Positions 21,757-47,894 of a DNA stretch of 64,000 nucleotides are shown here, in pieces (within the stretch, counting starts at the first letter, position 1; each line of letters opens with the position of its first letter). The stretch comes from Syntrophaceae bacterium UBA6252. Its GTDB lineage: Bacteria > Desulfobacterota > Syntrophia > Syntrophales > UBA6807. The stretch lies in NCBI GenBank assembly GCA_002441265.1, contig DJVQ01000036.1, positions 37,057 through 101,056 of the forward strand. Direction: 5' to 3'. A program made the position numbers and the translations under genes. The notes beneath the pieces were generated by a model. The model saw nothing but the letters and a program-made list of their open reading frames with translations, did no database searches and was not told the origin of the DNA.

Positions 21757-21757
21757 G

Positions 21758-23074: not shown

Positions 23075-24750
23075 GACGGTGTCCCTCCGTCTTTCCGGGG
23101 GCTGATGAGCCCCGGCTTGATCTGGGCCTTGATCCGGATGTTCTTTCCGGTGGTGTAGAATCCTCTTACCATGTTGAATTCCTGGTCCTCGATGATTTCC
23201 ATGATCAGGTCCTCCTCCCGGGCGCCCATCTTCAGGGCCCTTTCCAGGAGCTTTTCACGGCAGATGAAGAGGGCGTCATCCCGGGAGAACCTCCCGGGGA
23301 TGTCCTGCCGGATTCCTTCCTCCACGATGGTCAGGATCTTCTTCTCCGTGTCCGCGAGAAGGGTGATCTCCGTCGTTGTCCTTGCCAGGGCCGCCCCGAC
23401 GGCGTTGGCCACTTCCGCGTGCTTCGGCAGGCCGGGCCGGCAGCCGAGCAGTTCCCCGAGCCTCGGGGCCATGGCTTCCGCCGGCCCGCCGACGACGTAG
23501 AGAACCTTCGGCTCGATGATTTTGCCCTCCAGCATTTCGTGGATGGTGTAGACGGGCTTGTTGTTGATCTCGTCGAGGATCTCCCGGACGGCGTCCGCGA
23601 TCAGCCCGCACGTTTTTTCAAAGACGATCCGGGCCGTTTCCCCGGGAGAGGCGTTCGCCTCCCCGCCGAGGAGGTCCATGGCCGCCACGGCCTTTTCCCG
23701 GTCTCCGATCTTGGTGAGGCCGAGGACGATCATGGCGTCCGTGGGGGTGGGGAAGGGGCCGCCGAAGGCCATTGCCGGTCCCTCCCGTTCCGGGCCGATC
23801 CTGAGTTCCCCCTGTTCCCACCGGACCCTGCTGTCCCCGGCGACGCCGATGGACCGCGTCTGGAGACCCCGGACCAGGGTCTTCCGTCCTTCGATGGTGA
23901 CGCCGAAAGGCTCCAGGAGGGGGACGCCGTCTGCGAAGAGGGCGATGTCCGTGGTGGTTCCCCCGATGTCGAGGGCGACGGCGTCTTCCTTCCCTGCGGT
24001 CAGGCTCAGGATGCCCATGATGCTCGCCGCGGGTCCCGAAAGAATCGTCCCGACCGGGTATTTCGCCGACTGGCTGATTTCCGAGGTGCCGCCGTCGGCC
24101 TTGAGAATGTACACCGGTGCGGTGGTTCCGATCTCGGCGGTGAACCGGAGGATGTCCTCGACGAACCGGTTGTAGACCCTCCAGATGGCGGCGTTCAGGT
24201 AGGTCGTGGCGATCCGCCTGGGGTAATTCAGGTTTCCCGACATGCGGTGGCCGAAGGAGAGATGCTCGAAGTCCCCTTCGACGAGATCGCCGATTCTCTG
24301 CTCGAGACCGGGATTTCTCGTGGAAAACTTTCCCACGATTCCCAGGTGGCGGATTCCTTTTTTCTTCAGGCTGTCCGCCGCATCGCGGACTTCCCTCTCG
24401 TCCGTTCCCGCCGCTTCGAGTCCCCGGTGGCTGACGTACCCGGAGATGAAGCGGGTGTCCTCGTTGATCCGGAGCGTCTCCGGGGCAAGCCCCGGCCCTC
24501 CCGCGAGGATCATTCCCACCCGGTCCACCCGGTTCTGCACGATGGCGTTGGTGGACATGGTGGTGCTCAGGACGATCCTTTCGAGCTGTTTCAGGTCTCC
24601 CCCGTTCAGGATCCGGGAAGTCGCCTCCCGGAACGAGACGATGAGGTTTTCGGGGTTCGTGAGGACTTTGGCGGATGCGACCACTTCGAAGCGGCCGTTC
24701 AGGAGAACGGCGTCCGTGTGGGTGCCGCCGACATCGATTCCCAGGATCAT
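23071..24750 (-). CDS. Hydantoinase/oxoprolinase (HyuA-like, ASKHA fold) family protein
   Basis: 559 aa. MILGIDVGGTHTDAVLL N-terminus and a second phosphate motif LDIGGTTTDIA. Its stop overlaps the HDAC-family start (ATGA). Confidence 0.85.
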   Translation of the reverse strand: MILGIDVGGTHTDAVLLNGRFEVVASAKVLTNPENLIVSFREATSRILNGGDLKQLERIVLSTTMSTNAIVQNRVDRVGMILAGGPGLAPETLRINEDTRFISGYVSHRGLEAAGTDEREVRDAADSLKKKGIRHLGIVGKFSTRNPGLEQRIGDLVEGDFEHLSFGHRMSGNLNYPRRIATTYLNAAIWRVYNRFVEDILRFTAEIGTTAPVYILKADGGTSEISQSAKYPVGTILSGPAASIMGILSLTAGKEDAVALDIGGTTTDIALFADGVPLLEPFGVTIEGRKTLVRGLQTRSIGVAGDSRVRWEQGELRIGPEREGPAMAFGGPFPTPTDAMIVLGLTKIGDREKAVAAMDLLGGEANASPGETARIVFEKTCGLIADAVREILDEINNKPVYTIHEMLEGKIIEPKVLYVVGGPAEAMAPRLGELLGCRPGLPKHAEVANAVGAALARTTTEITLLADTEKKILTIVEEGIRQDIPGRFSRDDALFICREKLLERALKMGAREEDLIMEIIEDQEFNMVRGFYTTGKNIRIKAQIKPGLISPRKDGGTPS

Positions 24751-24827: not shown

Positions 24828-25004
24828 GACGGCTTTCGTCTTGACGCGCTCACTTCAGAGATCAAAAAACTTCTTTCGAAGGGCAACGTAGAAAGTTCAG
24901 GAGGCATGGCGCCCGACTCCCGGGACCGGCGCATATGGAGAATACGCCGCAGGGACGGTGAGCAACGGGCGACGCGGCATGGGACTTTTACGGAGCCATC
25001 CGTC
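24828..25004. repeat. Rep-A interspersed repeat, diverged copy
   Basis: GGCAACGTAGAAAGTTCAGGAGGCATGGCGCCCGACTCCCGG core and right end GGGACTTTTACGGAGCCATCCGTC. The boundaries are approximate. Confidence 0.55.
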
Positions 25005-25540: not shown

Positions 25541-26941
25541 ATGTTATCCGGTATCGGCCGCTTTTTTGCGGAAAAATTCAGAAGATGGCTTCCTGACTCG
25601 TTTATTTTCGCTATTTTGCTGACCTTTCTCGCGGCAATCATGGCGCTCCTGTTCGTGAAGGCGACGCCTCACGCCATCGTTCAGGGATGGTACAAGGGGT
25701 TCTGGATGCTCCTGGGCTTCGCCATGCAGATGATTCTCATCCTCGTTACGGGATACGCCATCGCCATATCCCCTCCGGCGGAGAAGTTCCTCAACTGGCT
25801 CGCGGAACGGGTAAAGAGCCCTGTCGCCGTATACGCCGTCGTGACGTTCATGGGCTGCGTCTTCTCCCTCATCAGTTGGGGCTGGATCGTCCTCACGGCG
25901 GTCCTGGGGAGGGAACTTGCGAAGAGGGTGAAGAAAGTGGATTACAGGCTTCTGGCCGCCTGCGTCTACACGGCGTTCATCCCGTGGCACGGCGGACTGT
26001 CCGGTTCGATCCCCCTCGTCCTCAACACGCCGGAAAACTTTCTCATCAAGGCCAAGGTCCTCGGGGAGACCATCCCCACGTCCCTGACCCTTCTGAGCCC
26101 CATGAACATCGTCTGCAACCTGGCGTTTCTCATCGCTCTTCCCGCCCTGATGGTCATGATGCGGCCCTCCGATGAGCATGTGACGGAATTTTCCGACATG
26201 CTCGACGAGGAGCACAAGTTCGCGAAACCCGTTACCGTGGCGGATGAGGCCGCGTCCCTGAACATGAAGGACAAGAACCTTTCCGACCTCCTGAACAACA
26301 GCGTGATCCTTCAGGTCCTCATTGTTCTCATGGGCGCGTGGATCATCGTGGAGCACTTCTACGGCAAGGGTTTCGACGTCAACCTGAACATCATGAACTT
26401 CCTGTTCATCATCGTGGGGATGCTCTGCCACAAAACGCCCCTCCGTTACCTGATCGCCATGAAGAGGGCCTGCAGCAACGTTTCCGGCATCGTTCTCCAG
26501 TTTCCCTTCTATGCCGGCATCATGGGGATCATGATGTACACGGGTCTCGGGAAGGCCATCGCCGCCTGGCTCGCGGGCTTCGCGACGGTCGGCAGCTACC
26601 CCTTCATCTGCTTCATCATCGGGGGATTCGTGAACATCTTCATCCCCTCGGGCGGCGGCGAGTGGGCCGTGGTCGGCCAGCCGATCATCGAGGCCGCGAG
26701 GACCCTGGGCGCCACCCTGTCCCCGGACCAGCTGACGGCGTTCATCTCCCGCTCCAGCATGGCCATCGCCTACGGCGACGCGTGGACGAACATGATCCAG
26801 CCCTTCTGGACCCTGGCGTTCTTCCCCGTCATCGCGGCGGGGACCAAGATGCAGGCCAGGGACATCATGGGATACACCTTCGTGTCGCTGATCGTTGCTT
26901 TCTTCGTGTTTGCCATCTGCGTCACGTGGCTGCCCGTCTAA
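25541..26941 (+). CDS. atoE: Short-chain fatty acid transporter AtoE family
   Basis: The ATG lies 5 nt after AGGAGG. The multi-TM protein has RWLPDSFIFAILLT, QFPFYAGIMG and PSGGGEW blocks, colinear with E. coli AtoE as I recall it. Confidence 0.9.
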   Translation: MLSGIGRFFAEKFRRWLPDSFIFAILLTFLAAIMALLFVKATPHAIVQGWYKGFWMLLGFAMQMILILVTGYAIAISPPAEKFLNWLAERVKSPVAVYAVVTFMGCVFSLISWGWIVLTAVLGRELAKRVKKVDYRLLAACVYTAFIPWHGGLSGSIPLVLNTPENFLIKAKVLGETIPTSLTLLSPMNIVCNLAFLIALPALMVMMRPSDEHVTEFSDMLDEEHKFAKPVTVADEAASLNMKDKNLSDLLNNSVILQVLIVLMGAWIIVEHFYGKGFDVNLNIMNFLFIIVGMLCHKTPLRYLIAMKRACSNVSGIVLQFPFYAGIMGIMMYTGLGKAIAAWLAGFATVGSYPFICFIIGGFVNIFIPSGGGEWAVVGQPIIEAARTLGATLSPDQLTAFISRSSMAIAYGDAWTNMIQPFWTLAFFPVIAAGTKMQARDIMGYTFVSLIVAFFVFAICVTWLPV

Positions 26942-27092
26942 AAACGTTTTCTTCCGTCCGGACCCGGGGCCCGCGTTCCTGCGGGCCCCGGCTTCCCGGG
27001 CCGGTCTCCCGCGGCCGGATCCCGCGATCCGGCGGCCCCGTCCCGCGAAAAAAAAGAAACCGGAAGCCGGCTTGAAAGAAGCCGCCGTCTTT

Positions 27093-27253
27093 GACGAACT
27101 CGTAAAAGACAAGACACCCCTTTTTTCTAACGGCAAAGGAAAAAGCTCCAGAGGCAAGGCGCCCGAATCGCGACGACCGAGGCGTACTTCCGGTACGCCG
27201 CAGGGACGAGGGATGAAGGGGAACGCAGGATATGGGGCTTTTTACGAAACCGC
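27093..27253. repeat. Rep-A interspersed repeat, full copy
   Basis: GACGAACTCGTAAAAG ... GGGGCTTTTTACGAAACCGCC. Core and hairpin GGCGTAC-TTCCG-GTACGCC (27181-27199) are conserved. Confidence 0.8.
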
Positions 27254-27351
27254 CCCTCTTGACAAGAGGAGGGCGTTCCCTTACGAAAGGGAACGGGGCG
27301 GTTCGCCCGGGGGGCTTTGGGCGCCCGCCCGGAAACGGAACAGGAGGGAAT

Positions 27352-28137
27352 ATGACGCGAAGACGATTCATCGATTTAAGCATCAGCATCGAACCCGCCC
27401 TTCCGAGCGATCCTCCGATGATGATTCCCGAAGTGGAGTACGTCGGCCACGAGGAGGGCGCGGAGCAGATGAAGTCCTTCTTCCCGGGGCTCGTCCGGGA
27501 GCAGCTCCCCGGAGGCCTGGGGTGGGCCCTGGAATTCCTCCGGCTGACCTCCCACAGCGGAACGCACCTGGATGCCCCGTATCACTACCATCCTACAATG
27601 GACGGGGGAAGCCCGGCTCTCACGATCGACGAGATCCCCCTCGACTGGTGCTTCGGCAACGGCGTGGTCCTGGATTTTTCCCGCAAAGGGGACGGCGAAC
27701 GGATCACTGCGGCGGACCTGAAGGAGGAACTTGAAAGGATCGGCTACCGGATCAGGCCGATGGACATCGTTCTCATCCGGACCGGCGCCGACGCGGCCTG
27801 GGGAACGCCGGCCTACCTGACGAAGGGGGCCGGGATGGATCGGGAAAGCACCCTGTACCTGCTGGACCAGGGCGTCAGGGTGGTCGGCATCGACGCCTGG
27901 AGCTGGGACCGGCCCCTTCCTTTCCTGGCGGAGGAATTCCGGAAAACCGGCGACCCGAAGGTCGTCTGGGAAGCACACTTCGCGGGAATCGAACGGGGAT
28001 ACTGTCACATGGAGAAAATGGCGAACCTTGCGGCGATCGGCAGGCCCTTCGGATTCACCGTCTGCTGTTTCCCCGTCAGGATCAAGGGGGCGAGCGCCGG
28101 GTGGGTGCGGCCGGTGGCCATCATCGAGGAGGAATGA
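27352..28137 (+). CDS. Cyclase-family metal-dependent hydrolase (kynurenine formamidase-like)
   Basis: 261 aa from the ATG after CAGGAGGGAA. It carries the HSGTHLDAPYH metal-binding motif. Confidence 0.85.
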   Translation: MTRRRFIDLSISIEPALPSDPPMMIPEVEYVGHEEGAEQMKSFFPGLVREQLPGGLGWALEFLRLTSHSGTHLDAPYHYHPTMDGGSPALTIDEIPLDWCFGNGVVLDFSRKGDGERITAADLKEELERIGYRIRPMDIVLIRTGADAAWGTPAYLTKGAGMDRESTLYLLDQGVRVVGIDAWSWDRPLPFLAEEFRKTGDPKVVWEAHFAGIERGYCHMEKMANLAAIGRPFGFTVCCFPVRIKGASAGWVRPVAIIEEE

Positions 28138-28141
28138 AATC

Positions 28142-30250
28142 GTGAAGAAGTTTTTCTGTCCCGAATCCGTCGTAATCATCGGCGCCCCGGGGAAAACCGG
28201 CGTCGGTTCGTTCAACAACGTGGAAATGATGATCCGCTATGGTTACGGTGGACGGATCTATCCCGTCAACCCGAAGGTCCGTGAGATCTGCGGCCTGAAA
28301 TGCTATCCGTCTGTTCTGGAGGTGCCGGAGGCGGCCGACGTCGCCGTCATCTCCGTCGGCCGGGACCGGGTGATCCCCCTGTTCCTGGAGTGCGCCCAGG
28401 CGGGGATCCGGCGGGTGGTGGTCGTCACCCAGGGATTCGGCGACGCCGACGAACGGGGGAGAACGCTTCAGCAGGAACTCGTTTCCCTGGCCCGGCGGCA
28501 CCAAGTCCGGATCGTCGGACCGAACACCATGGGGATTGTCAACAACTACAACCGGTTTACGACCAGTTTCGTCGATCTTCCTTACCACGAGGATTTTTCC
28601 CCCGTTTCGCTCATCGCCCAGACCGGTTTCATCCAGGTCGCGTCGAAGGATTACGCATACCGTTGGTGGGGGAAGGCCCTGGACATCGGGAACGCGGCGG
28701 ACGTCCATTTCGCCGACGGGCTCCGTTACTTCGGGGACGACCCGGAGACGGAAGTGATCGCCCTCCACATGGAAGGGATCGAGCGGGGAAGGGAATTTCT
28801 CGATCTGGCGTCGGAAATAACGAGAAAGAAACCCATCGTCGTTCTCAAGACGGGAAGAAGCCGGGCGGGGGCGAAGGCGGCCCTTTCCCATACAGGCTCC
28901 CTCACCGGAGAGGACGCCGTGTTCGAAGCCGCCTTCGACCGGGCCGGGATCCTCCGCGTCCGGGACACGGCGGAACTGAGGGACACCCTCCGGGCGCTCG
29001 TGTGCATGCGGGAAATGAAAGGGCCTGGCATCGGCGTCATCACCGTCACGGGCGCCGGCGGCATCATGGCCATCGATGCCTGCGAGGAAAGGGGAATCGG
29101 GATGGCGCCCCTGCCGGAGGGCCTGTCGGATCGGCTCAGGGCCGGGATGCCCGAATGGCTGCACGTCGGAAATCCCATCGATATCTGGCCGATCAGCATG
29201 ATCGGGGGGAATTATTCCGGACCCGTCCGGACCGCCCTGGACGGCATGCTCGCTTCTCCCGACATTCACGGGGTCCTTCTCATCACCCCGGCGCTGAGGT
29301 CGTCCCTCCATTCCGACATGTCCGATCTCACCGGGCTTGTGGCGGAAGCGCGGAAGAAGGCGGGAAACGACAAGCCGATCGCGGTCTTTCCTTACGCCGA
29401 CGAGAGCGGCCGGGCCCCGGGCGACTACGAGCGCATTCGGGGCGTCGCCGCCTTCCCCTCGGCGGAGGAGTGCGTGAGGGGCCTTGCCGCGTGCTTCCGG
29501 TACCACGGGATCCGGAATCGCCGGATTCCCTCCGTGGAGCGGCTCGAAGCGGACGCCGGCCGGGCGGAACCCCTCGTCGCGAAGGGGCGAAGGGAGGGGC
29601 TTCTCCTGGGGGAGGACGCACTGGCGCTTCTCGCCGCGTTCGGGATTCCCGTGGCGCGGGGAGGAATTCTGGGGACTTCCGGGGAATGGGAGGCCCTGTC
29701 CGGGGGCATCCCCTATCCGGTCGTGCTGAAGGTCCATGGCCGGCATTTCCTTCACAAGAGCGAATGGGGAGGCGTGCTCACGGGGATCGCCGACGGAGAC
29801 TCCTTTTCCCGGGCATGGGCGACGCTGGAGGCGCGAGTCCGGGAGAAGGCGCCCGGCGTTCCCTTTGAGGGGTTTCAGGTCCAGGAGGCGATCGCCGGCA
29901 CGGAGATTCTTTTCGGGATCCGGCGGGATCCCCAGTTCGGGCCGGTCGTCGCCTGCGGTTTCGGCGGGATTTACACGGAGGTTTTCAGGGATGTGGCCCG
30001 GCGGATCGCGCCGATCGACAGGGAGGAGGCCCGGGAGATGCTCCGCTCCCTGAGGATGTACCCCATTCTCCAGGGGATTCGGGGACGGAAGGGTGCGGAC
30101 CTGGAACAACTCGCGGACGTTCTTCTCCGGATCTCCCGTCTCGCCCTGGAAATCCCCGATCTCGTCGAGATGGACGTCAATCCCTTCATCTGCGGGGAAA
30201 CGGTTTCCGCGGCCGTGGACGCCCGAATGCTCTGGAAGGAGGGTTCCTGA
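28142..30250 (+). CDS. ADP-forming acyl-CoA synthetase (fused alpha-beta; CoA-binding + ligase-CoA + ATP-grasp)
   Basis: The GTG lies 4 nt after the cyclase stop, with GAGGAGGA upstream. SVVIIGAPGKTGVGS (CoA-binding), the phosphohistidine loop ALSHTGSLTG, and a C-terminal ATP-grasp (YPVVLKV...HKSEWGGV). Confidence 0.88.
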   Translation: MKKFFCPESVVIIGAPGKTGVGSFNNVEMMIRYGYGGRIYPVNPKVREICGLKCYPSVLEVPEAADVAVISVGRDRVIPLFLECAQAGIRRVVVVTQGFGDADERGRTLQQELVSLARRHQVRIVGPNTMGIVNNYNRFTTSFVDLPYHEDFSPVSLIAQTGFIQVASKDYAYRWWGKALDIGNAADVHFADGLRYFGDDPETEVIALHMEGIERGREFLDLASEITRKKPIVVLKTGRSRAGAKAALSHTGSLTGEDAVFEAAFDRAGILRVRDTAELRDTLRALVCMREMKGPGIGVITVTGAGGIMAIDACEERGIGMAPLPEGLSDRLRAGMPEWLHVGNPIDIWPISMIGGNYSGPVRTALDGMLASPDIHGVLLITPALRSSLHSDMSDLTGLVAEARKKAGNDKPIAVFPYADESGRAPGDYERIRGVAAFPSAEECVRGLAACFRYHGIRNRRIPSVERLEADAGRAEPLVAKGRREGLLLGEDALALLAAFGIPVARGGILGTSGEWEALSGGIPYPVVLKVHGRHFLHKSEWGGVLTGIADGDSFSRAWATLEARVREKAPGVPFEGFQVQEAIAGTEILFGIRRDPQFGPVVACGFGGIYTEVFRDVARRIAPIDREEAREMLRSLRMYPILQGIRGRKGADLEQLADVLLRISRLALEIPDLVEMDVNPFICGETVSAAVDARMLWKEGS

Positions 30251-30658
30251 ACGGACAATGCAATTGACAGATTTCACATTTCTTTATATCGTAAGCTGAA
30301 ATCCTGCCGGGGGGCACCGTACGACATGACAGGAAAGAATCCGGCGGAGGATGCTTTTCGGATCCGTGTCGCTGCAGGAAACAATACAACTTCGGAATAA
30401 AGGGGTTCCGCCGGGTCGTCGCGCGCTTTCGGAGCAGGAGAAGTCATCGTCGGCTTGAGGCGGAGGTTTCCGTCCTCCGGGGACGGCTGGAGAACAGGCA
30501 TGCACCGGTTCCGGCCCGATGGACCGGGCGGGCGTTCTTCATGAACCGCCGCGGAGGAAGAATTCACTGGGAAGGGGGTGATGCATCGATTTCAGGAACA
30601 TTCGGGATTTCCTCCGTGGATGGATCCTTCAACAGGTGAATGCAAAAGGAGGTAGGCC

Positions 30659-32008
30659 ATGATCAGAGCAATGGGGCGCGTCTTTGACAAATGGGCGCGG
30701 AAATGGATGCCGGATCCGATGTTGTTCGCGATCCTTCTTACCTTCATTACGTACCTCTTGGGGCTCATCCTGACGGACAGCGGCCCCTTCCAGATGATCC
30801 AGCACTGGTACAAGGGTTTCTGGGAACTCCTTTCCTTCGCAATGCAGATGTGCCTGATTCTCGTCACCGGGCACGCCCTGGCGACGTCTCCCCTTGTACG
30901 AAGGTGGATCGAGCATCTGGCGGAGATTCCCAAGCACCAGGCCGGGGCGATCTTTCTCGTCGGCTTTACCGCGGCGATCGCGTCGTGGATCAACTGGGGC
31001 CTCGGGATCATCGTGGGAGCCCTCATGGCCCGCGAGGTCGGCAGGAGCGGCCAGCTCCGTGGGATTCCCATGCACTATCCCCTTCTCGGCGCGGCCGGCT
31101 ATGCCGGGTTCCTCACCTGGCACGGCGGTCTTTCCGCTTCGGCTCCTCTCCTGGTGGCCACGGATAAGCACTTCCTGGTGAACGAGATCGGAGTCATCCC
31201 GTCCCGCCTGACCCTTTTCAGCACCATGAACATCGTCATTTCCATCGTACTCATCCTGCTCATTCCCCTGGTGTGCATGCTCATGGCCCCGAAGAACAAG
31301 GAGGAGATGGAGACCATCGTCGATGTGGACCCGGACCTGGTGAAAAAAGAGGAGGTCAAGGTCATTCCCCGGGAAAAGATGGTTGTGGCGGACAAGATCG
31401 AAAACAGCGTCGTCATCTCCGGGATCATCGGCATCGCCGGCATGATTTATGTCGTCTGGTTCTTCTACACCAAGGGATTCGCCCTTGACCTGAACATCGT
31501 GAACTTCACGTTCCTGTTCCTGGGCATCCTCTTCCAGCGAACCCCGATCAACTACATCCGGGCCGTCAGCGAAGGCGCCAAGGCCTGCGCCGGGATCATC
31601 GTCCAGTTCCCCTTCTACGCGGGAATCATGGGGATGATGAAGTACTCCGGCCTCGTGGCCATCATCGCCAACTGGTTCGTCGTCATCTCCACGGCGACAA
31701 CCTATCCCGTCTTCACGTTCCTCAGCGCCGGCCTGGTGAACCTCTTCGTTCCCTCCGGCGGCGGCCAGTGGGCGGTTCAGGGGCCCATCATGGTGAAGGC
31801 GGCCCAGGCCATGAACTTCGACATGAACAAGACGATCATGGCGGTGGCCTACGGCGATGAATGGACGAACATGCTCCAGCCCTTCTGGGCGCTGGCCCTC
31901 CTGGGGATCACCAGGCTGAAGGCCCGTGAAATCGTCGGGTACACCATGGTGGTTCTCGTGGTGAGTGCCATCGTGTTTATCCTCGGACTTCTGTATCTCC
32001 CCGTGTGA
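30659..32008 (+). CDS. atoE: Short-chain fatty acid transporter AtoE family (second paralogue)
   Basis: 449 aa with RBS AAAGGAGG. KWMPDPMLFAILLT, QFPFYAGIMGMM, PSGGGQWAVQGP and AVAYGDEWTNMLQPFWALA blocks. Confidence 0.92.
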   Translation: MIRAMGRVFDKWARKWMPDPMLFAILLTFITYLLGLILTDSGPFQMIQHWYKGFWELLSFAMQMCLILVTGHALATSPLVRRWIEHLAEIPKHQAGAIFLVGFTAAIASWINWGLGIIVGALMAREVGRSGQLRGIPMHYPLLGAAGYAGFLTWHGGLSASAPLLVATDKHFLVNEIGVIPSRLTLFSTMNIVISIVLILLIPLVCMLMAPKNKEEMETIVDVDPDLVKKEEVKVIPREKMVVADKIENSVVISGIIGIAGMIYVVWFFYTKGFALDLNIVNFTFLFLGILFQRTPINYIRAVSEGAKACAGIIVQFPFYAGIMGMMKYSGLVAIIANWFVVISTATTYPVFTFLSAGLVNLFVPSGGGQWAVQGPIMVKAAQAMNFDMNKTIMAVAYGDEWTNMLQPFWALALLGITRLKAREIVGYTMVVLVVSAIVFILGLLYLPV

Positions 32009-32037
32009 GAACGGCACGGGGAAATTAACGGCCGTAT

Positions 32038-32070
32038 GGGGGCGCCCGTTCCGAGACGGAGGGCGCCCCC
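32038..32070 (+). terminator. GC hairpin after atoE-2
   Basis: GGGGGCGCCC-N13-GGGCGCCCCC followed by a weak T-tract. Confidence 0.4.
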
Positions 32071-32224
32071 TGATCTTGCCGGAAACCCGCATCCCGGCGG
32101 GAAGGGAATTTTCACCTTGACCCGCGGCACCCCCCGAGGCTATAGTTTCCTCGGGGCAGATGATGGGGACGAGGGCCGGTGCGGAATGCGGGATGAGGGG
32201 ATTCCACCCGGAAAGGAAGCGTTC

Positions 32225-34168
32225 ATGGAAGAGAAACCTTCCCGTCCCGGGGAGGAGAGGTATTGGCACAGCCTTCAGCGTGAGATCAACCAACGGAAGA
32301 TCGAGGAACTGAAGGCCCTTTACCCTGAAAAATTCGTCCCCGAGAACACGTTCTTCCAGAACATCCACCGGGGAGACCGCATTTTCATCAGCACGGGCTG
32401 CGGCGAGCCCCGGTCCCTGGTGGATGCGCTCATCCGCTATGTCGACGGGCACCCCAAGTCGTTTTTCGACGCCGAGGTGCTTCATGTCTGGACGCTCGGC
32501 GTCGCCCCCTACACGGACCAGAGATTCAAGTCCAATTTCCGGCACAACTCCTTCTTCGTCGGCGACAACACCCGCGATACGGTGAACCGGGGAATGGCCG
32601 ATTACACCCCCATCTTCCTGTCCGAGGTCCCCAGCCTCCTGTACCGCCGCATCGTTCCCATCGACGTGGCTCTCGTCCAGACCTCGTTTCCGGACAAGCA
32701 CGGGTACATGAGCCTCGGCGTCAGCGTGGACATCGACAAGGCGGCGGTGGAATGCGCCCGGATCGTCATCGCCCAGGTGAATTCCTGCATGCCCCGGGTG
32801 CACGGGGACGGGTTCATCCACATCCGGGACGTGAACTTTGTCTATCCCTTCGAGGAACCGCTTCTGGAATACCACACCGGCACCGATTCCGAAGAGATCC
32901 AGAAGATCGGCCGCTACGTGGCGCGGCTCGTTCAGAACGGGGACACCATCCAGGTGGGGTACGGGAGCATCCCCAACGCCATTCTGAAAAGCCTGAAGGA
33001 GAAGAAGGATCTCGGGGTCCACACGGAGCTCATCGGCGACGGCATCGTGGAACTCATGAAGGATGGGGTCGTCACCAACAGCCGCAAATCGCTGAACCGG
33101 GGAAAAACCATCGCCGCCTTCTGCATGGGGGCGCCGGAAACTTACGAATATCTTCACGACAACCCCATGATCGAACTGCGGACCATCGACTACACGAACG
33201 ATCCCCTCGTCATCGCCCAGCACGAAAACATGACGGCCATCAATTCGGCCCTGGAAATCGATCTGACGGGACAGGCAAGCGCCGAATCGATCGGCAAGGT
33301 GTTCTACAGCGGCATCGGAGGGCAGGCGGATTTCATGCGCGGGGCCGTCCTCGCGAAAAACGGGAAAACGATCCTGGCCATGCTTTCCACGGCGTCCGGG
33401 GGGGAGATCTCCCGGATCGTCCCATTCCTGAAGGAGGGCGCCGGGGCCACCCTGAACCGCGGCGACATCCATTACGTGGTCACCGAGTACGGGATCGTGT
33501 ACCTCCACGGCAGAAACATCCGGGAGCGGGCCATGGAACTCATATCCATCGCTCATCCCCGGTTCCGGCCCTGGCTCATCGAGGAGGCGAAGAAAGCGGG
33601 TCTCATCTACCGCGACCAGAGCTACATTCCGGGAAAGAAAGGGGAGTACCCTGAAAGTCTCGAGGGCTACCGGACGACGAAAACGGGCATGAACATCTAT
33701 CTCCGGCCCGTCCGGATCAGCGACGAGCCGCTCCTCAAGGATTTTTTCTATTCCCTTTCCGACAGCAGCCTGTACCGGAGGTTCATCTCCGCCCGGAAGG
33801 ACATCCCCCACGAGCGCCTGCAGGACTTCACCGTCATCGACTATTCGAAGGAGATGGCGATCGTGGCGGTGGTGGACAGGAAGATCCGGGAAACCATCGT
33901 CGGCATGGGACAGTACGGCATCGACGAGCGGACGCACACGGCGGAGGTGGCCTTCGCCGTCCGCGACGACGAGCAGGGCCGCGGCATCGCCACGGAAATC
34001 CTTTCCTATCTCACATACCTGGCAAAGAAGCAGGGCCTCCTCGGTTTCACCGCGGAGGTGCTCGTGGAAAACAAACCCATGCTTCATGTCTTCGAGAAGA
34101 TGGGCTTCGATATGGAGAGGCGGGTGGCCGAAGGGGTCTATGAACTCCGCATGTCCTTCCGTTCCTGA
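32225..34168 (+). CDS. Acetyl-CoA hydrolase/transferase domain fused to a C-terminal Pat-type GNAT acetyltransferase domain
   Basis: 647 aa from the ATG after GGAAAGGAAG. The N-terminal ~480 aa have FISTGCGEP and GIGGQADF blocks of the Ach1/Cat1 CoA-transferase family. The C-terminal ~160 aa (33686-34165) carry the GNAT motif A QGRGIA. Confidence 0.85.
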   Translation: MEEKPSRPGEERYWHSLQREINQRKIEELKALYPEKFVPENTFFQNIHRGDRIFISTGCGEPRSLVDALIRYVDGHPKSFFDAEVLHVWTLGVAPYTDQRFKSNFRHNSFFVGDNTRDTVNRGMADYTPIFLSEVPSLLYRRIVPIDVALVQTSFPDKHGYMSLGVSVDIDKAAVECARIVIAQVNSCMPRVHGDGFIHIRDVNFVYPFEEPLLEYHTGTDSEEIQKIGRYVARLVQNGDTIQVGYGSIPNAILKSLKEKKDLGVHTELIGDGIVELMKDGVVTNSRKSLNRGKTIAAFCMGAPETYEYLHDNPMIELRTIDYTNDPLVIAQHENMTAINSALEIDLTGQASAESIGKVFYSGIGGQADFMRGAVLAKNGKTILAMLSTASGGEISRIVPFLKEGAGATLNRGDIHYVVTEYGIVYLHGRNIRERAMELISIAHPRFRPWLIEEAKKAGLIYRDQSYIPGKKGEYPESLEGYRTTKTGMNIYLRPVRISDEPLLKDFFYSLSDSSLYRRFISARKDIPHERLQDFTVIDYSKEMAIVAVVDRKIRETIVGMGQYGIDERTHTAEVAFAVRDDEQGRGIATEILSYLTYLAKKQGLLGFTAEVLVENKPMLHVFEKMGFDMERRVAEGVYELRMSFRS

Positions 34169-34281
34169 CGAAGGCTCCCGCCGAGGAAAAAGACGGCTCC
34201 GGAACCTCTCCGGGGTGCCGGATGTCTTTCCGGTAAAAGGGATTCTCCGGAATCCTTCGACGTTATGAAGAGGTCTGTTTC

Positions 34282-36411
34282 ATGAATCGCAAAGATGAAG
34301 ACGGAAACATCCGCCGTCTTTTCGAACCCCGTTCCATCGCGGTCGTCGGGGCATCGGCCGACCCGGGGAAGATCGGGTACAAGATCCTGGAGAACATCCA
34401 CTCCGGCGGTTACGCGGGGAGGATCGCCCCCGTGAATCCCCGGGGCGGCGAAATCCTGGGGCTTCCCGTTCATGAGAACGTGGAGGCCGTTCCGGGCGAG
34501 GTCGATGTCGCGGTCATCACCGTGCCGGCGAAATTCGTCCGCGCGGCGGTGGAGGATTGCGGGCGGAAGGGGGTGAAGTACCTCCTCGTCATCACCTCCG
34601 GATTTTCCGAAGTGGGAAATCTCCGCGGGGAACGGGAAGTGGTCTCCCTGGCCCGGGAAGCGGGCATGCGGATCGTCGGCCCGAACATGTTCGGAATCTA
34701 TTCCGCCGCCGCGTCCCTGAACGCGACCTTCGGCCCTTCGACGATCCGGCCCGGGGGCGTGGCCATCATCAGCCAGAGCGGGGCGCTCGGTCTGGCCATG
34801 ATCGGAAAGACGTACACGGAGAACATCGGTCTTTCCGCCATCTGTTCCGTGGGGAACAAGGCGGACGTGGACGAGGCCGACCTCCTCGAATACCTCGTCC
34901 CCCAGGAGGAGACGAAGGTCATCCTCATGTACATCGAGGGCGTCCGGGAGGGCGAACGGTTCATCAAGGCCCTGAGGGAGGCGACGGCGGTGAAACCGGT
35001 GATCGTCGTCAAGTCGGGGCGCTCCGCCCGGGGGGCGGCCGCCGCGGCGTCCCACACGGGATCCCTGGCGGGATCGGACCGGGTCTTCGACGCCGTGGCC
35101 AGGCAGTGCGGCGCGCTTCGGGCGGAGACCGTCAAGGACGCCTTCGACTGGTGCCGCTACGTTTCCGTGAATCCCCTTCCCCGGGGGGAGGAAACGGTGA
35201 TCATCACGAACGGAGGGGGAATGGGCGTCCTTGCCACCGACGCCTGTGAGAAATTCGGCATCCACCTCTACGACGACCTGGAGGTCCTGAAGAACATCTT
35301 TTCCCCGGTGACCCCCGAATTCGGGTCCACGAGAAATCCCGTGGACCTGACGGGAGGGGCGGAGGCGGGGGACTACGACCGGGCTCTCGAAGCCGCCCTG
35401 GAACGGGACGACGTTCACTCCGTCATCGCCCTGTACTGCGAGACCGCCGTGTTCGACGCCGGGAAGCTTCCCGGCATGGTCCATGAAAATTACCGGAAAT
35501 ACCGGGAGAGGGAAAAACCGGTCACGTTTTCGCTGTTCGGCGGCGAGTCCACGGAGGCGACGGTTTCCCGCCTTTCCAGGGAACAGGTTCCCGTGTTCAG
35601 CGACGTGTACGAGGCGATTTCCCCGCTGGGAGCGGCCTATGCCTGCCGCCGCTACCGGGAAAGCCGGAAGGAGGCTTTCGACGTTCCCGCCGTCGACCGG
35701 GAGGCCCTGCGGGGCATCATCGGGCCCATCCAGGCGGAGGGCCGTCATTTTCTTCTGGCCGGGGAGGCCCAGAAACTGATGGGAATCAGCGGCGTCCCCG
35801 TCCCCCGGACGCGGCTGGCGTCCACCCTCGGGGAGGCCGTGGAGGCTTCCAGGGACATCGGGTATCCCGTGGTCATGAAGGTCGTTTCCCGGGACATCGT
35901 TCACAAGAGCGACGCCGGCGGAGTGGCCCTCGATCTGGACAATGAAAAGGAGGTCATGGACGCCTACGAGGCGATCCTGCAGAACTGCAGGACCCGGGTC
36001 CCCGGCGCCAGGATCCAGGGCGTCGAGGTCGCCGAAATGGTCAAAGGGGGGACGGAAATGATCGCGGGGGCGAAGATCGATCCGTCCTTCGGCCCCATCG
36101 TCATGGTCGGCCTGGGAGGGATTTACGTGGAGGTGATGAAGGATGTCGCCTTCCGGTCCTATCCCCTGGACCGGGGGGAAGTGCTTTCCATGATCCGGGA
36201 GATCCGGTCCTATCCGCTTCTTCTCGGCGTCCGGGGCGAAAGCCCGAAGGACATCCGCACCCTGGTCGATACGATCCTCCTTCTGGGGGAAATGGTGTTC
36301 CAGTGCCGGGAAGTGAGCGATATTGAAATCAATCCCCTGGTCGTCTACGACGAGGGCCGGGGAGCCAGGGCCGTGGACGTACGGGTCCTGCTCGCGAAAG
36401 AAGAGAGGTGA
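34282..36411 (+). CDS. ADP-forming acetyl/acyl-CoA synthetase (fused alpha-beta)
   Basis: 709 aa. SIAVVGASADPGKIGYKI, the phosphohistidine loop AASHTGSLAG, and an ATP-grasp (GYPVVMKVVSRDIVHKSDAGGV). Confidence 0.9.
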   Translation: MNRKDEDGNIRRLFEPRSIAVVGASADPGKIGYKILENIHSGGYAGRIAPVNPRGGEILGLPVHENVEAVPGEVDVAVITVPAKFVRAAVEDCGRKGVKYLLVITSGFSEVGNLRGEREVVSLAREAGMRIVGPNMFGIYSAAASLNATFGPSTIRPGGVAIISQSGALGLAMIGKTYTENIGLSAICSVGNKADVDEADLLEYLVPQEETKVILMYIEGVREGERFIKALREATAVKPVIVVKSGRSARGAAAAASHTGSLAGSDRVFDAVARQCGALRAETVKDAFDWCRYVSVNPLPRGEETVIITNGGGMGVLATDACEKFGIHLYDDLEVLKNIFSPVTPEFGSTRNPVDLTGGAEAGDYDRALEAALERDDVHSVIALYCETAVFDAGKLPGMVHENYRKYREREKPVTFSLFGGESTEATVSRLSREQVPVFSDVYEAISPLGAAYACRRYRESRKEAFDVPAVDREALRGIIGPIQAEGRHFLLAGEAQKLMGISGVPVPRTRLASTLGEAVEASRDIGYPVVMKVVSRDIVHKSDAGGVALDLDNEKEVMDAYEAILQNCRTRVPGARIQGVEVAEMVKGGTEMIAGAKIDPSFGPIVMVGLGGIYVEVMKDVAFRSYPLDRGEVLSMIREIRSYPLLLGVRGESPKDIRTLVDTILLLGEMVFQCREVSDIEINPLVVYDEGRGARAVDVRVLLAKEER

Positions 36412-36416
36412 GTTTC

Positions 36417-37439
36417 ATGGAACGGGTTATCGTGGCCTCGACGAGGAAAAGCGCCGGAAAGACCAGCCTGATCGTGGGAATGGCGAAGGTCCTGGGAGCG
36501 CCTTTTTCCTATATCAAGCCTTTCGGGGACCGGTTGTTCTACCGGAAGAAAAGGCTCTGGGATTACGACTCCGCCGTTGTGACGCAGGTCTTCGGCCTTT
36601 CCACGGACCCGGAGGAGATGAGCATCGGGTTCGAGCATGCCAAAGTCCGATACATGTACGACGAGAACTCCATCAAGGAGAAACTCCTCGACATGACCGG
36701 ACGGGGGGAGGGGCGGGCTTTCATCGAGGCGGGGGGCGATCTCTGCTCCGGCGCCTCGGTCCACCTGGACGCCCTCTCCCTGGCGAGACTGGGAGCGGGC
36801 AAGCTGATCCTGGTCCTGAGCGGCGGGGAGGGCCCCGTCATGGACGATCTCACCTTCCTGAAACGTTCCGTGGAGCTGGGTGCCGTATCCGTGGCAGGCG
36901 TCATCGTCAACAAGGCGGAGGACCGGGACGATTTCGAAAGGGTCTTCAGCAAGGAGATCGAGGCCATGGGGTTCCCCCTTCTCGGGATCGTTCCCTTTAT
37001 CCGGGAACTGACCTATGTACGGGCGGCGATCCTGGCGGAGCGGCTTTTCGTCAAGGTGATCGCCGGCGGGGAGGGACTGGGAAACGTCATCCGGAACGTC
37101 TTCATCGGCGCCATGAACGCCCACGCCGCCCAGCGGGACCCCCTTTTCAGGCGGGAAGGGAAGCTGCTCATCACGAGCGGGGACCAGAGCGACATGATCG
37201 TGGCCGGCCTGGAGAGCGACACCGCCTGCATTCTCATCACGAACAACATCGTTCCACCCCCGACGATCCTGGCCCTCTCGGCGGAGCGGAACATCCCCCT
37301 CCTCCTGGCGTCCGGCGACACCTACCAGGTGGCCAGGGAAGTGGACTGCTTCGAACCCATTCTGGCCCGGGGAGACGAGGATAAAGTCGCGTTGATGGAA
37401 GATACCGTGAAAAAATATGTCCGAATGGACATCTTCTGA
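36417..37439 (+). CDS. Phosphotransacetylase N-terminal-like protein (BioD-like P-loop + DRTGG domain) lacking the PTA catalytic domain
   Basis: The ATG lies 5 nt after the ACD stop. [21 protein letters not shown]-loop-like N-terminus. C-terminal [28 protein letters not shown] resembles a DRTGG domain. Confidence 0.72.
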
Positions 37440-37461: not shown

Positions 37462-38070
37462 ATGGCGAAATTCTACGAACTGCCGAAACTTCCTTACGGT
37501 TACGGGGACCTGGCACCGGTCCTTTCGGAAGAGCAGCTCACGCTCCATCACCAGAAGCACCACCAGGCCTATGTCACCGGGGCGAACGGGCTCCTGGAGA
37601 AGTTCGACAAGGCGCGGAAGGAAGGGGTCGACCTCGATCAGAAGGCGCTCCTGAAGGAACTCTCCTTCAACATCGGGGGGCACGTCCTTCACTCCCTCTT
37701 CTGGGGGAACCTGGCCCCCAAGGGAAAAGGCGGGAGCGGACCGGAGGGGGGCCTGGAAAAGGCCCTGAAGGAGGAGTTCGGATCGGTGGACCGGTTCCGG
37801 AAGGAATTCACCCAGGCGGCGGTTTCCGTGGAAGGATCCGGCTGGGCCGCGCTTTCCTTCTGCCGGCTCACGGGGCGGCCCGTGATCATGCAGGTGGAGA
37901 AACACAACGTGAACGTCTATCCCATGTTCACCCTTCTCATGGTCCTCGACGTCTGGGAGCACGCCTACTATGTCGATTACAGAAACCTCCGGGCGAAATT
38001 CGTCGAGGGCTTCTGGGACATCCTGAACTGGAAGGAAGTGTCCCGCCGTTTCGAGAAGATCGGTTCGTAG
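37462..38070 (+). CDS. Fe/Mn superoxide dismutase
   Basis: 202 aa. [29 protein letters not shown]-terminus and DVWEHAYY metal-ligand motif. Confidence 0.93.
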
Positions 38071-38086: not shown

Positions 38087-38542
38087 ATGGCCAGGTTGAC
38101 CTTCAGCAGCGACGGCAGACGGGTGAAGGGTGCGGTCCGGAAGGAGCCGGGAGCGTCCGGCCGTTCCCCCGACGAAGTCGTCCGCGGGATGAAGGAGGAG
38201 GCGAAAAAGCCGCCCGGCGAGGACTACCGCGAACGGTCGCTGCGGATTCACGGGCTCGTGTGCGCCCACTGCGGGCGGGTGTTCGACGAGGCGAACCGCC
38301 ATCTTCTGACGGTCCACCATCGCGACGGGAACCACCACAACAACCCCCCCGACGGGAGCAACTGGGAAAACCTCTGCGTGTACTGCCACGAGAACGCCCA
38401 CAGCCGGGAGGTCCTCGGAGAGTACCTCGGCGGTGCGGCGGGAAGGGACCGGGACCGTCCCGTGGTCTCCGGAGAGGGCAACGGCGGCTTCGGCCTCCTT
38501 GCGGAAAAACTGCAAAAAGCCATGAAAGACAAAAGGAAATGA
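38087..38542 (+). CDS. yajD: YajD-like HNH endonuclease-family protein
   Basis: CAHCG...LTVHHRDGNHHNNPPDGSNWENLCVYCHENAH core. The start may be internal (ATG 38189), because homology begins near YRERSLRIHG. Confidence 0.78.
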   Translation: MARLTFSSDGRRVKGAVRKEPGASGRSPDEVVRGMKEEAKKPPGEDYRERSLRIHGLVCAHCGRVFDEANRHLLTVHHRDGNHHNNPPDGSNWENLCVYCHENAHSREVLGEYLGGAAGRDRDRPVVSGEGNGGFGLLAEKLQKAMKDKRK

Positions 38543-38726: not shown

Positions 38727-39719
38727 GTGGACGTAATAGAAAAAGGAGTCGGTAGGATCTTTACGGATCCCGATGCGGACAAAGCGCGGGAATTTTTCAG
38801 ACACAAGAGCCGCGCCCTGGTGAGCAAGCTGACGACCGTAAAAGAGGCGGTGAAGGAACTGATCAAGGATGGGGACTATATTTCCGTCGGCGGTTTCGGC
38901 GCCAACCGGGTCCCCATATCGGTTCTCCATGAAATCCTGAGACAGAAGAAAAAAGACCTCGGCCTCGCCGGGCACACGGCGACCCACGACTTCCAGATCC
39001 TCTCCGCCGGGAAGGTGTTCAACCGGTGCGATATCGCCTACATCATCGGGCTCGAGGCGAGAGGTCTGTCCCCCAACGCGAGGGCCTACATGCAGAGCGG
39101 CGAGGTGGAAGTCACCGAGTGGACGAACTACACCATGTCCGCCCGTTACAAAGCAGCCGCGGCAGGCGTCTCCTTCCACCCCATCCGCAACATGATGGGG
39201 ACGGACACGTTCAAGTACAGTGCAGCCGCGGTCTCGGAGTGCCCCTTCACGGGCCAGAAGTACACCCTCGTCCCCGCCCTCTATTCCGATGTGGCCGTCA
39301 TCCATGCGCATGAGGCGGACATCTACGGGAACTGCCGGGTTCGGGGCATCCTCATGTCCGACTGGGACATTGCACGCTCCTCCAAGAAGGTCATCATCAC
39401 CTGCGAACGGCTCATCCCGAACGACGAGATTCGGAGAGACCCGACCATGACCTTCATTCCCTACTACTGTGTCGACGCCGTCTGTGAAGTTCCCTACGGA
39501 AGCTATCCCGGCAACATGTACCAGGAGTACTTCTCCGATGAAGACCATCTGCGGGAATGGCTGAAGGTGGAGAAAGATCCCGAAGCGTTCAAGAAGTTCC
39601 TCGACAAGAACATCTACGGTGTCCAGGACCACTTCGAGTACATCGAGAGGAACGGCGGGATCCGCAAGATGCAGATGCTGCGGCAGAAAGAGTGGCTGTT
39701 CAGAGGCGCCAGACAATAA
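38727..39719 (+). CDS. CoA-transferase subunit A (glutaconate CoA-transferase GctA-like)
   Basis: 330 aa with a GTG start after GAGGAGGAGG. DGDYISVGGFGANRVPISVLHEILRQ resembles the family I CoA-transferase alpha N-terminus. Confidence 0.86.
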   Translation: MDVIEKGVGRIFTDPDADKAREFFRHKSRALVSKLTTVKEAVKELIKDGDYISVGGFGANRVPISVLHEILRQKKKDLGLAGHTATHDFQILSAGKVFNRCDIAYIIGLEARGLSPNARAYMQSGEVEVTEWTNYTMSARYKAAAAGVSFHPIRNMMGTDTFKYSAAAVSECPFTGQKYTLVPALYSDVAVIHAHEADIYGNCRVRGILMSDWDIARSSKKVIITCERLIPNDEIRRDPTMTFIPYYCVDAVCEVPYGSYPGNMYQEYFSDEDHLREWLKVEKDPEAFKKFLDKNIYGVQDHFEYIERNGGIRKMQMLRQKEWLFRGARQ

Positions 39720-47815: not shown

Positions 47816-47894
47816 CGGGCGTTTCCTCCTTTCAGGGCCCTTTGGGCGCATCGGCCGGACGGCGTTGCGAACGGCCGAAAACACTTTTCTTAGA

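Follow-up and report, generated by a model that had tools for sequence, protein, structure and literature searches.

Syntrophs, fermenters, and many archaea near the thermodynamic limit rely for substrate-level phosphorylation mainly on the conversion of acetyl-CoA to acetate and ATP, and we know essentially nothing of how ADP-forming acyl-CoA synthetases (ACDs) are regulated. Class II Pta joins an N-terminal module (PtaN) to an enzyme acting on acetyl-CoA and phosphate, and the AMP-forming acyl-CoA synthetase Acs is the canonical target of the lysine acetyltransferase Pat. Pat joins an ACD-like domain to a GNAT domain (PMC8556138; bioRxiv 10.1101/2024.11.12.623305), and this ACD-like domain is inactive, without the catalytic His (PMC8556138). 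A major review sets out how domains are arranged in GNAT lysine acetyltransferases of types I to III (PMC8556138), and types I to IV are discussed in a paper on the PatZ structure (bioRxiv 10.1101/2024.11.12.623305); both list ACS-like, cAMP-binding, NADP-binding, and ACT regulatory domains, and neither mentions a CoA-transferase type. According to the paper on the PatZ structure, most bacteria studied regulate Acs through acetylation by a GNAT (bioRxiv 10.1101/2024.11.12.623305), and systems like acsA-acuABC also involve regulatory nucleotide-binding accessory proteins (PMC13039410). As to free-standing relatives of PtaN, DVU3031 of Desulfovibrio vulgaris, a PtaN-like AAA plus DRTGG protein, adjoins pta-ack (PMC4481167), and the DRTGG protein AF_1212 (2ioj) has the locus tag next to that of AF_1211, an ADP-forming acetate-CoA ligase (PMC8359953), the adjacency being read from locus-tag order. 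Here we analyze 64,000 nucleotides of contig DJVQ01000036.1 (positions 37,057 to 101,056, the window) from Syntrophaceae bacterium UBA6252, in which three consecutive genes, together called the triad, encode a CoA-transferase::GNAT fusion protein, an ACD, and a PtaN-like protein.

The triad is very probably a real conserved operon and the core of its locus. Gene coordinates come from an open reading frame (ORF) listing and from external gene calls on a 454,689-bp metagenome contig that contains the window (ENA ERZ27315056 k141_540579), which agree for 25541-37439, and families were assigned to the window proteins by Pfam and NCBIfam profile searches. The three genes, and the paralogues of the first two within the window, are as follows.

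32225-34168, plus strand: Fusion-1, CoA-transferase::GNAT (647 aa), triad gene 1 (AcetylCoA_hydro, AcetylCoA_hyd_C, GNAT)
34282-36411, plus strand: ACD-2, fused alpha-beta ADP-forming acyl-CoA synthetase (709 aa), triad gene 2 (Pfam, PDB)
36417-37439, plus strand: PtaN-like protein, hereafter PtaN (340 aa), triad gene 3 (AAA_26, DRTGG)
28142-30250, plus strand: ACD-1, fused alpha-beta ADP-forming acyl-CoA synthetase (702 aa, GTG start; Pfam, PDB)
47931-49829, minus strand: Fusion-2, CoA-transferase-like::GNAT paralogue (632 aa; Pfam)

The longest ORF for Fusion-1 begins at 32036, and the gene caller and the homologues favor 32225. The sequence confirms the junction reported in the first-pass annotation between the TGA of ACD-2, ending at 36411, and the ATG of PtaN at 36417, 5 nt apart.

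Scanning one genome per species gave 450 genomes with a relative of the fusion, and the best 80 loci (66–86% identity) were kept with 10-kb flanks and searched with all window proteins by tblastn, their neighboring ORFs being clustered de novo. We call informative the 66 of these 80 loci whose sequence extends 3.3 kb or more past the fusion gene. An ACD of the ACD-2 type and then PtaN follow the fusion on the same strand in 25 of these 66, and PtaN follows it directly in four. Overall, an ACD lies directly downstream of the fusion in 28 loci; the gap between fusion stop and ACD start is −4 nt in 16 of the 25 loci measured, and that between ACD and PtaN is mostly 0–13 nt. Hosts of the triad are Syntrophales, other Thermodesulfobacteriota, Spirochaetota/Leptospirales, Dehalococcoidia, and a Thermoplasmatota archaeon, and the closest genome in the set is the Syntrophales metagenome-assembled genome (MAG) AnMBR.bin292 (L008), with a fusion 86% identical to that of the window. 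Retrieval from the PtaN side, with homologues at ~50% identity, found the triad in all three loci fetched (Bipolaricaulota, Theionarchaea, and a metagenome), with genes overlapping or abutting and with unrelated flanks. The first-pass annotation had not recognized the gene combination of 25541-37439 as a described operon, and we found no description of the triad: a literature search on the fusion, the triad, or BioD-like/DRTGG proteins with an ACD returned nothing relevant, most subscription journals being outside its coverage.

The other recurrent neighbor is Acs, which lies within 10 kb of the fusion in 15 of the 80 loci. Acs and ACD/PtaN are never found together near the fusion in these 80 loci, and there is no Acs within the 64-kb window. 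In a rough neighbor-joining ordering of the fusions, Acs-linked and ACD/PtaN-linked loci interleave and do not follow taxonomy, which suggests repeated partner switching and horizontal transfer. Two other arrangements were seen among these loci. Seven Acs-linked loci (L013, L023, L025, L026, and related ones) carry a conserved 266-aa protein without a Pfam match (cluster C3) between the fusion and a convergent Acs gene. In a Syntrophales MAG (L019, 3966-11866), a divergent ACD-like gene, whose product is 38% identical to ACD-2, lies between two full-length fusion genes with 69% and 71% identity to the fusion of the window.

Fusion-1 consists of a CoA-transferase domain (residues ~27–465), a conserved linker, and a GNAT domain (~472–647). 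The CoA-transferase domain scores 159 bits for PF02550 and 209 bits for PF13336, and solved structures of 4-hydroxybutyrate CoA-transferases align with residues ~27–465 almost from end to end (9vag, 1.9e-121; 3eh7, 1.4e-120). Because of these matches and of TIGR03948 as top NCBIfam match (271.8 against a cut-off of 674.8, which is missed), the domain is, by sequence, of the 4-hydroxybutyrate (AbfT) / butyryl-CoA:acetate subfamily and not of the Ach1/Cat1 type proposed in the first-pass annotation. Conservation was computed over 73 genomes with the window protein as reference, and mean identity to it is 71% for the CoA-transferase domain, 71% for the linker, and 68% for the GNAT domain. Glu268 of the HTE motif, which we take to be the catalytic residue, is 100% conserved, and GxGGQxDF is conserved as well. 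In the GNAT domain, motif A is present as QGRGIA, and Glu574 (92%), Q584 (92%), and G587 (99%) are conserved; E574 aligns with residue 809 of PatZ (9it0), presumably the catalytic Glu. Since the catalytic residues of the CoA-transferase and of the GNAT are conserved, both halves look catalytically competent.

The GNAT domain (~472–644) matches S. lividans PatA (4nxy, 4e-20), residues 709–879 of PatZ (9it0, 1e-19; 9isq), and mycobacterial Pat (4ava/4orf), and the alignment with the Pat GNATs takes in the Pat-specific N-terminal extension. All its top matches among solved structures are of the Pat family, and NF058543 is its best NCBIfam GNAT match; judging from these alignments, its closest characterized relatives are the protein lysine acetyltransferases Pat, PatZ, and PatA. 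Fusion-1 is neither Pat type I nor type II: there is no inactive NDP-forming acyl-CoA synthetase-like domain on the same chain, the GNAT being attached to a CoA-transferase instead, and the ACD is a separate gene with its His residues intact. It would thus be, at most, a new architectural type of Pat-like protein. A search of the GNAT domain against 1.84 billion representative proteins gave 11,466 matches; the ten scanned with Pfam include several divergent CoA-transferase::GNAT subfamilies in addition to ACD::GNAT (Pat type I) and GNAT::ACD (type II) proteins. In a search with the fusion protein, the 120 best of at least 8000 matches were examined, and all are full-length, with the same Pfam architecture and 71–100% identity. 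These 120 come from Deltaproteobacteria/Syntrophales, Promethearchaeota, Borrarchaeum (Asgard), Methanoperedenaceae, ANME-1, Bipolaricaulota, and Poribacteria, and CoA-transferase::GNAT proteins are found in both bacteria and archaea, including Asgard, ANME-1, and Theionarchaea. One relative (P0436, 967 aa) has an additional N-terminal 4Fe-4S ferredoxin-type match ahead of CoA-transferase::GNAT, suggesting that further architectural variants of the family may exist.

Fusion-2 is 33% identical to Fusion-1 over its full length. Its CoA-transferase motifs are lost (HTE has become HSL, and GIGGQADF has become GPGEVQEL) and its GNAT motif is retained as QGIGIA, so a CoA-transferase fold can, it appears, act as a non-catalytic companion of a GNAT. 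An RlmL-like methyltransferase gene (49831-51012) precedes Fusion-2 at a distance of 1 nt, and two CsgG-like genes (46778-47884 and 45721-46758) follow it.

Both ACDs of the window contain the full set of five subdomains (CoA_binding, Succ_CoA_lig, Ligase_CoA_2, and ATP-grasp_5 in Pfam). ACD-1 matches PDB entry 8wzu (1.9e-97); ACD-2 matches 8wzu (2.7e-154), 4xyl (1e-120), and the PatZ regulatory domain 9it0 (1e-80), and the PDB matches of the ACDs include 9y43. ACD-1 retains both catalytic His motifs, SHTGSLTG and LHKSEWGGV, and H258 and H541 of ACD-2 are 100% conserved among 26 ACDs found with the fusion (cassette ACDs). We assume the roles described for the enzymes of P. furiosus and Ca. Korarchaeum, with the phospho-His in alpha SHTGS and the second His in beta HKS/T. 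The cassette ACDs are 54–81% identical to ACD-2 and only ~30% to ACD-1, and make up a subfamily of their own that accompanies the fusion. ACD-1 and ACD-2 share 35% identity, and in NCBIfam the equivalog scores of ACD-1 are lower still than those of ACD-2. Compared with its positional counterpart in L008 (5867-7963), ACD-1 is 60% identical, and the flanking genes are 81–92% identical. Multiple ACD copies are normal for Syntrophales; for example, S. aciditrophicus, which makes ATP from acetyl-CoA, carries nine of these genes (PMC4992975).

PtaN matches AAA_26 (PF13500, 45.6 bits) and DRTGG (PF07085, 70.3 bits); Pfam finds no PTA_PTB catalytic domain in it, and it is hence no Pta. NF004167 matches PtaN with its N-terminal half alone, at 69 bits against a cut-off of 418. 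The single sequence match of PtaN among solved structures is AF_1212 (2ioj, 1e-10). An AlphaFold2 model of PtaN (pLDDT 83.7) matches in Foldseek the dethiobiotin synthetase BioD and AF1212 (TM-score of the target, TMt, 0.81), as well as the DRTGG domain of a CBS-pyrophosphatase and the N-terminal domain of E. coli Pta (7t85). Invariant across 20 homologues are the Walker A residues G14-K15-T16, the set Y42-K45-R46-W48-D49-D51, the motifs K-P-x-G-x-R and F-x-H-x-K, and, in the DRTGG domain, the core T-x-G-D. The model thus points to a BioD-like domain plus DRTGG, as in the regulatory N-terminus of class II Pta. In four Spirochaetota loci (L027, L029, L032, and L039), two tandem PtaN genes follow the ACD, each encoding a protein 47–51% identical to PtaN of the window.

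Around the triad, the window (G+C ~61%) contains further genes that lie in the same orientation or diverge from it.

25541-26941, plus strand: AtoE-1, short-chain fatty acid transporter family (466 aa; SCFA_trans PF02667)
27352-28137, plus strand: cyclase-family metal-dependent hydrolase (261 aa; PF04199)
30659-32008, plus strand: AtoE-2, short-chain fatty acid transporter family (449 aa; PF02667)
37462-38070, plus strand: Fe/Mn superoxide dismutase, SOD (202 aa; Pfam Sod_Fe_N, Sod_Fe_C; gene call)
38087-38542, plus strand: small HNH-domain protein (151 aa; PF01844 at 3.9e-07)
38727-39719, plus strand: class I CoA-transferase subunit A (PF01144)
39738-40508, plus strand: class I CoA-transferase subunit B, end of the co-oriented run (PF01144)
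21758-23074, minus strand: HDAC-family deacetylase (438 aa; PF00850 at 1e-67)
23071-24750, minus strand: hydantoinase-A/oxoprolinase-like protein (559 aa; PF01968, PF05378)

The first-pass annotation had counted eight plus-strand genes in 25541-37439; the ORF listing and the external gene calls give seven, and the co-oriented run continues past the end of this interval to 40508 with the SOD, the HNH protein, and the two-subunit class I CoA-transferase. All family assignments made in the first-pass annotation were borne out by Pfam and NCBIfam at these coordinates, the profile searches that it proposed placed none of the ORFs in unrelated families, and its general theme of acyl-CoA and short-chain acids holds. 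Its other close junction is also present in the sequence: the last base of the cyclase TGA is 28137 and ACD-1 begins with GTG at 28142, which leaves 4 nt, and GAGGAGGA stands just upstream of the GTG. The remaining intergenic gaps are long (410, 408, 216, and 113 nt, the last between Fusion-1 and ACD-2), and for this reason 25541-37439 is probably several transcription units. The SOD gene starts 22 nt past PtaN and the HNH gene 16 nt past SOD, and SOD is probably co-transcribed with PtaN. A consensus promoter scan found three promoter-like sites against 3.3 expected, which is chance level, and a terminator scan found 27 terminator-like sites against 16.4 ± 4.7 expected and gave no usable transcription-unit boundaries. 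An Rfam scan of the whole window gave zero families at gathering score. PADLOC defense models had no match for the fusion, ACD-2, PtaN, or the cyclase, and gave the small HNH protein generic HNH similarity (ZorE) only.

Both AtoE proteins are family members and not equivalogs: PF02667 scores are 422.5 bits for AtoE-1 and 530.2 for AtoE-2 (cut-off 27), and the TIGR00366 cut-off of 575.75 is missed by both (415.8 and 522.8). A recent tandem duplication of AtoE and ACD was considered and rejected, since AtoE-1 and AtoE-2 share 39% identity and the two ACDs 35%, as expected of old paralogues. AtoE-2 lies upstream of the fusion only in L005 (81% identity), L007 (80%), and L008 (92%), and AtoE-1 and the cyclase are missing from L008, where the divergent HDAC-hydantoinase pair is followed directly by ACD-1, then by AtoE-2 and the rest. 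The neighborhood search proposed in the first-pass annotation therefore came out divided: the triad is kept across phyla, AtoE-1 and the cyclase are not, and AtoE-2 is kept in three close relatives only. In the same clade of L005, L007, and L008, and only there, the triad is followed by SOD (72%, 73%, and 89% identity, respectively), the syntenic HNH protein, and the class I CoA-transferase, whose subunits are 88% and 93% identical in L008 and 69% and 75% in L007.

The cyclase scores 134.2 bits for PF04199, and its translation contains HSGTHLDAPYH, which fits what we take to be the metal-binding motif of the family, HxGTHxDxPxH. It misses the arylformamidase equivalog TIGR03035 (37 bits against a cut-off of 223), and the 'kynurenine formamidase' names in JGI records of its homologues are generic. 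Homologues 76–81% identical sit in three unrelated neighborhoods, beside an ABC transporter, in a shikimate-pathway cluster, and beside a methyltransferase, and never beside an ACD. Among the contexts examined, the 4-nt junction of cyclase and ACD-1 was therefore found in this genome only. A conserved, coupled pair of cyclase and ACD-1 was rejected on these contexts and on the lack of the cyclase in L008. In metagenomes, the cyclase-family protein is represented by a very large set at 75–81% identity in unrelated contexts, an unusual conservation given that its substrate is unassigned.

The HDAC and hydantoinase-like genes overlap by 4 nt, diverge from the island, and are syntenic in L008 (87% and 82% identity). 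HDAC-family genes also stand beside the fusion and Acs in L035 (Lyngbya sp. CCY1209, the one genome recovered that is not a MAG) and L062, a weak hint that the HDAC may be an 'eraser' of acylation. Between the hydantoinase-like gene and AtoE-2, the sequence looks like a hot spot of variation in which AtoE-1 and the cyclase were gained or lost and the ACD is divergent. A repeat of ~115 nt is dispersed among intergenic regions, at ~21665-21790, 24870-24985, ~27120-27235, and ~51060-51175 on the plus strand, with the core GGCAAGGCGCCCGAATCCCGACGACCGxGGCGTACT...GTACGCCGCAGGGA, and the second and third copies bracket AtoE-1. The repeat matches no Rfam family, is not a known RNA, and may be a REP/MITE-like element or a recombination site. 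An apparent further copy at 32166-32203, ahead of the fusion gene, gives a poor alignment and was dismissed as coincidental. Farther upstream, the window encodes a carboxyl-transferase-domain protein (13874-15601, plus strand) and an HMGL-like protein (16545-17735, plus strand), which could be parts of an acyl-CoA/oxo-acid carboxylase or decarboxylase and would fit an acyl-CoA-rich neighborhood. The island is, in our view, a lineage-specific patchwork of acyl-CoA genes gathered around a horizontally mobile, conserved triad.

The triad probably controls the acetyl-CoA/acetate/ATP node. Our preferred reading, which we hold to be evenly balanced between right and wrong, is that of a control module for this node that has a Pat-like lysine acyltransferase of a new architectural type at its center and acts by regulatory acylation. 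Conserved residues predict that ACD-2 is catalytically competent and would interconvert acetyl- or short-acyl-CoA, ADP, and Pi with acid, ATP, and CoA, and the CoA-transferase domain would exchange CoA between acetate and a second short acid (for instance, butyrate or 4-hydroxybutyrate). Between them, various acyl-CoAs could be cashed for ATP, or acids could be activated via an acetate/acetyl-CoA shuttle. The Pat-type GNAT would be a protein lysine acyltransferase controlled or fed by the CoA-transferase domain, the role that the dead ACD-like domain has in Pat, and would acylate its neighbor, which may be ACD-2 or PtaN here and Acs where Acs replaces ACD-PtaN; acylation would then throttle the node according to the acyl-CoA pool. 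PtaN would bind nucleotides and act as a regulatory partner to ACD-2, doing as a separate protein what the N-terminal regulatory domain does in class II Pta. We base this reading on an analogy of domain fusions (ACD-like plus GNAT in Pat, PtaN plus an acetyl-CoA/Pi enzyme in Pta), on the mutual exclusion of Acs and ACD-PtaN as neighbors, and on the second paralogue, Fusion-2, in the same window. The first-pass annotation had guessed at sensing or regulation of the acyl-CoA pool by the GNAT and the Pta-N-like protein, and the Pat-family relatives of the GNAT and the BioD-like plus DRTGG model of PtaN fit that guess.

Several observations count against regulatory acylation within an operon. In the window itself, 113 nt lie between Fusion-1 and ACD-2 where other loci have an overlap, and both scans, for promoters and for terminators, stay at chance level. 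Near the fusion, neither ACD/PtaN nor Acs is found in 24 of the 66 informative loci, so the fusion can work without a linked partner, and an HDAC gene is found in just 3 of the 80 loci besides the window. The neighbor-joining ordering carries no support values, and the loci are not phylogenetically independent. ACD-2 is below its equivalog cut-offs (TIGR02717, 505.7 against 567; NF045493, 609 against 1300), and since it and the CoA-transferase domain miss all equivalog cut-offs in NCBIfam, no substrate is assigned. No acylation target was identified, reading the translations of ACD-2 and PtaN revealed no PX4GK-type motif, and to our knowledge ACDs are not known Pat substrates. In addition, both domains of the fusion keep their catalytic residues, which leaves room for the main rival, a triad that is purely metabolic. 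Transferase and ACD would then form a pathway from acyl-CoA via acetyl-CoA to acetate and ATP, or the reverse, with the GNAT N-acylating a small molecule (an amino acid, an amine, or an intermediate) with acyl-CoA from the same polypeptide and PtaN, as an enzyme like BioD, using NTP on a carboxylate or acyl-phosphate. Small molecules are the substrates of many GNATs, and this rival is consistent with the conserved catalytic residues of CoA-transferase, ACD, and PtaN Walker A, with the very strong, near full-length match to characterized 4-hydroxybutyrate CoA-transferases (E ~1e-121), and with BioD-family enzymes as best structural matches of the N-domain of PtaN. However, the nearest characterized relatives of the GNAT are exclusively Pat-family protein acetyltransferases, N-terminal extension included, the mutually exclusive Acs and ACD neighbors point to the enzyme itself as the partner, and Fusion-2 has lost CoA-transferase catalysis and kept its GNAT; we consider the rival unlikely.

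It is also conceivable, and decidedly improbable to us, that the fusion is a Pat-like regulator with a distant target, Acs or another AMP-forming acyl-CoA synthetase, and that ACD-2 and PtaN are merely co-expressed with it, and do not touch it directly, as users of the same metabolite pool. The 64-kb window is without Acs, which makes a distant target possible, and the loci with neither partner agree with it, as does the reported regulation of Acs by GNAT acetylation in most bacteria studied (bioRxiv 10.1101/2024.11.12.623305), yet the 4-nt overlaps, together with an ACD subfamily that co-evolves, suggest that the proteins are produced in stoichiometric amounts, and the Pat-type ACD-like/GNAT fusions argue for contact between the two folds (PMC8556138). 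The first-pass annotation had taken the seven or eight genes together for one self-contained module of short-chain-acid import or export, CoA shuttling, and ATP conservation. The genes are indeed co-oriented, all belong to acyl-CoA or short-chain-acid families, and two of the junctions are 4–5 nt, with AtoE-2, the triad, SOD, HNH, and the class I CoA-transferase syntenic in L005, L007, and L008. Against this, the closest genome has neither AtoE-1 nor the cyclase, cyclase homologues sit in unrelated contexts, the run is split by the four long gaps, and beyond the three close relatives only fusion, ACD-2, and PtaN recur across genomes, so that a single co-regulated module seems to us very unlikely. 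Returning to regulatory acylation, a bolder form of it, which we regard as unlikely, would make CoA-transferase::GNAT a widespread new type of the Pat family. Its active transferase would generate the acyl donor locally, out of acetyl-CoA and a free short-chain acid, lysine acylation of ACD or Acs would report the availability of the acid, and PtaN would be an NTP-binding third subunit of the ACD complex.

While the island as a whole is ordinary for Syntrophales, the triad is an undescribed, cross-domain, and highly conserved operon of known families. With an active ACD encoded between a Pat-type acyltransferase and a Pta-N-like P-loop protein, it would give a concrete handle on ACD regulation and, if our reading is right, a new type of regulatory domain for the published classification of GNAT acetyltransferases. 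It may also offer a function for long-unexplained free-standing BioD-like/DRTGG proteins such as DVU3031 and AF_1212, and it suggests that Pat (ACD-like plus GNAT) and class II Pta (PtaN plus Pta) may stem from separately encoded partners. The conservation of the fusion, 66–86% identity across phyla and in both prokaryotic domains, marks an important uncharacterized protein.

Compared with the class II Pta of E. coli and Salmonella, whose N-domain shares AAA_26 plus DRTGG with PtaN and matches it in structure (7t85), the triad likewise ties this module to an enzyme that turns acetyl-CoA and Pi towards acetate and ATP. However, PtaN has no PTA_PTB domain, its partner is an ACD and not Pta-Ack, and the Walker A GKT is invariant in its family, whereas the P-loop of the E. 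coli Pta N-domain is degenerate. In standing alone, PtaN is like DVU3031. The fusion resembles Pat, PatZ, and SlPatA in having the same GNAT (N-terminal extension, motif A, and a Glu equivalent to E809) joined to a large domain like an acyl-CoA-binding enzyme, and an ACD-family protein is also present in the triad, as the next gene. It differs in carrying a 4-hydroxybutyrate-type CoA-transferase with its catalytic Glu in place of an NDP-forming acyl-CoA synthetase-like domain; the triad ACD is separate and keeps both catalytic His residues, in contrast to the inactive ACD-like domain of Pat (PMC8556138). AbfT and butyryl-CoA:acetate CoA-transferases are matched nearly full-length, with the HTE Glu and GxGGQxDF kept, and to this the fusion adds a C-terminal Pat-type GNAT through a conserved linker. 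As in acsA-acuABC of B. subtilis (GNAT AcuA, HDAC-like AcuC, and adaptor AcuB), a writer, an HDAC-family eraser, and an acetate-activating enzyme may occur together, with fusion, Acs, and HDAC in L035 and L062 and, in the window and L008, an HDAC gene upstream at a distance of a few kb, but the GNAT is of another subfamily and architecture, the partner in the window is ACD and not Acs, and the HDAC link is weak. The E. coli ato system also encodes AtoE-family permeases next to CoA-transferases; the island is without a thiolase and an AtoSC-type regulator, and its permeases are not kept with the triad beyond close relatives. Finally, ACD-1 and ACD-2 share their subdomains and both His residues with the archaeal ACDs (AF_1211, Ca. 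Korarchaeum ACD1 4xyl, and the Nitrosopumilus 4-hydroxybutyrate-CoA ligase 8wzu), and what sets the triad ACD apart from these is its place between a CoA-transferase::GNAT fusion and a full BioD-like plus DRTGG protein.

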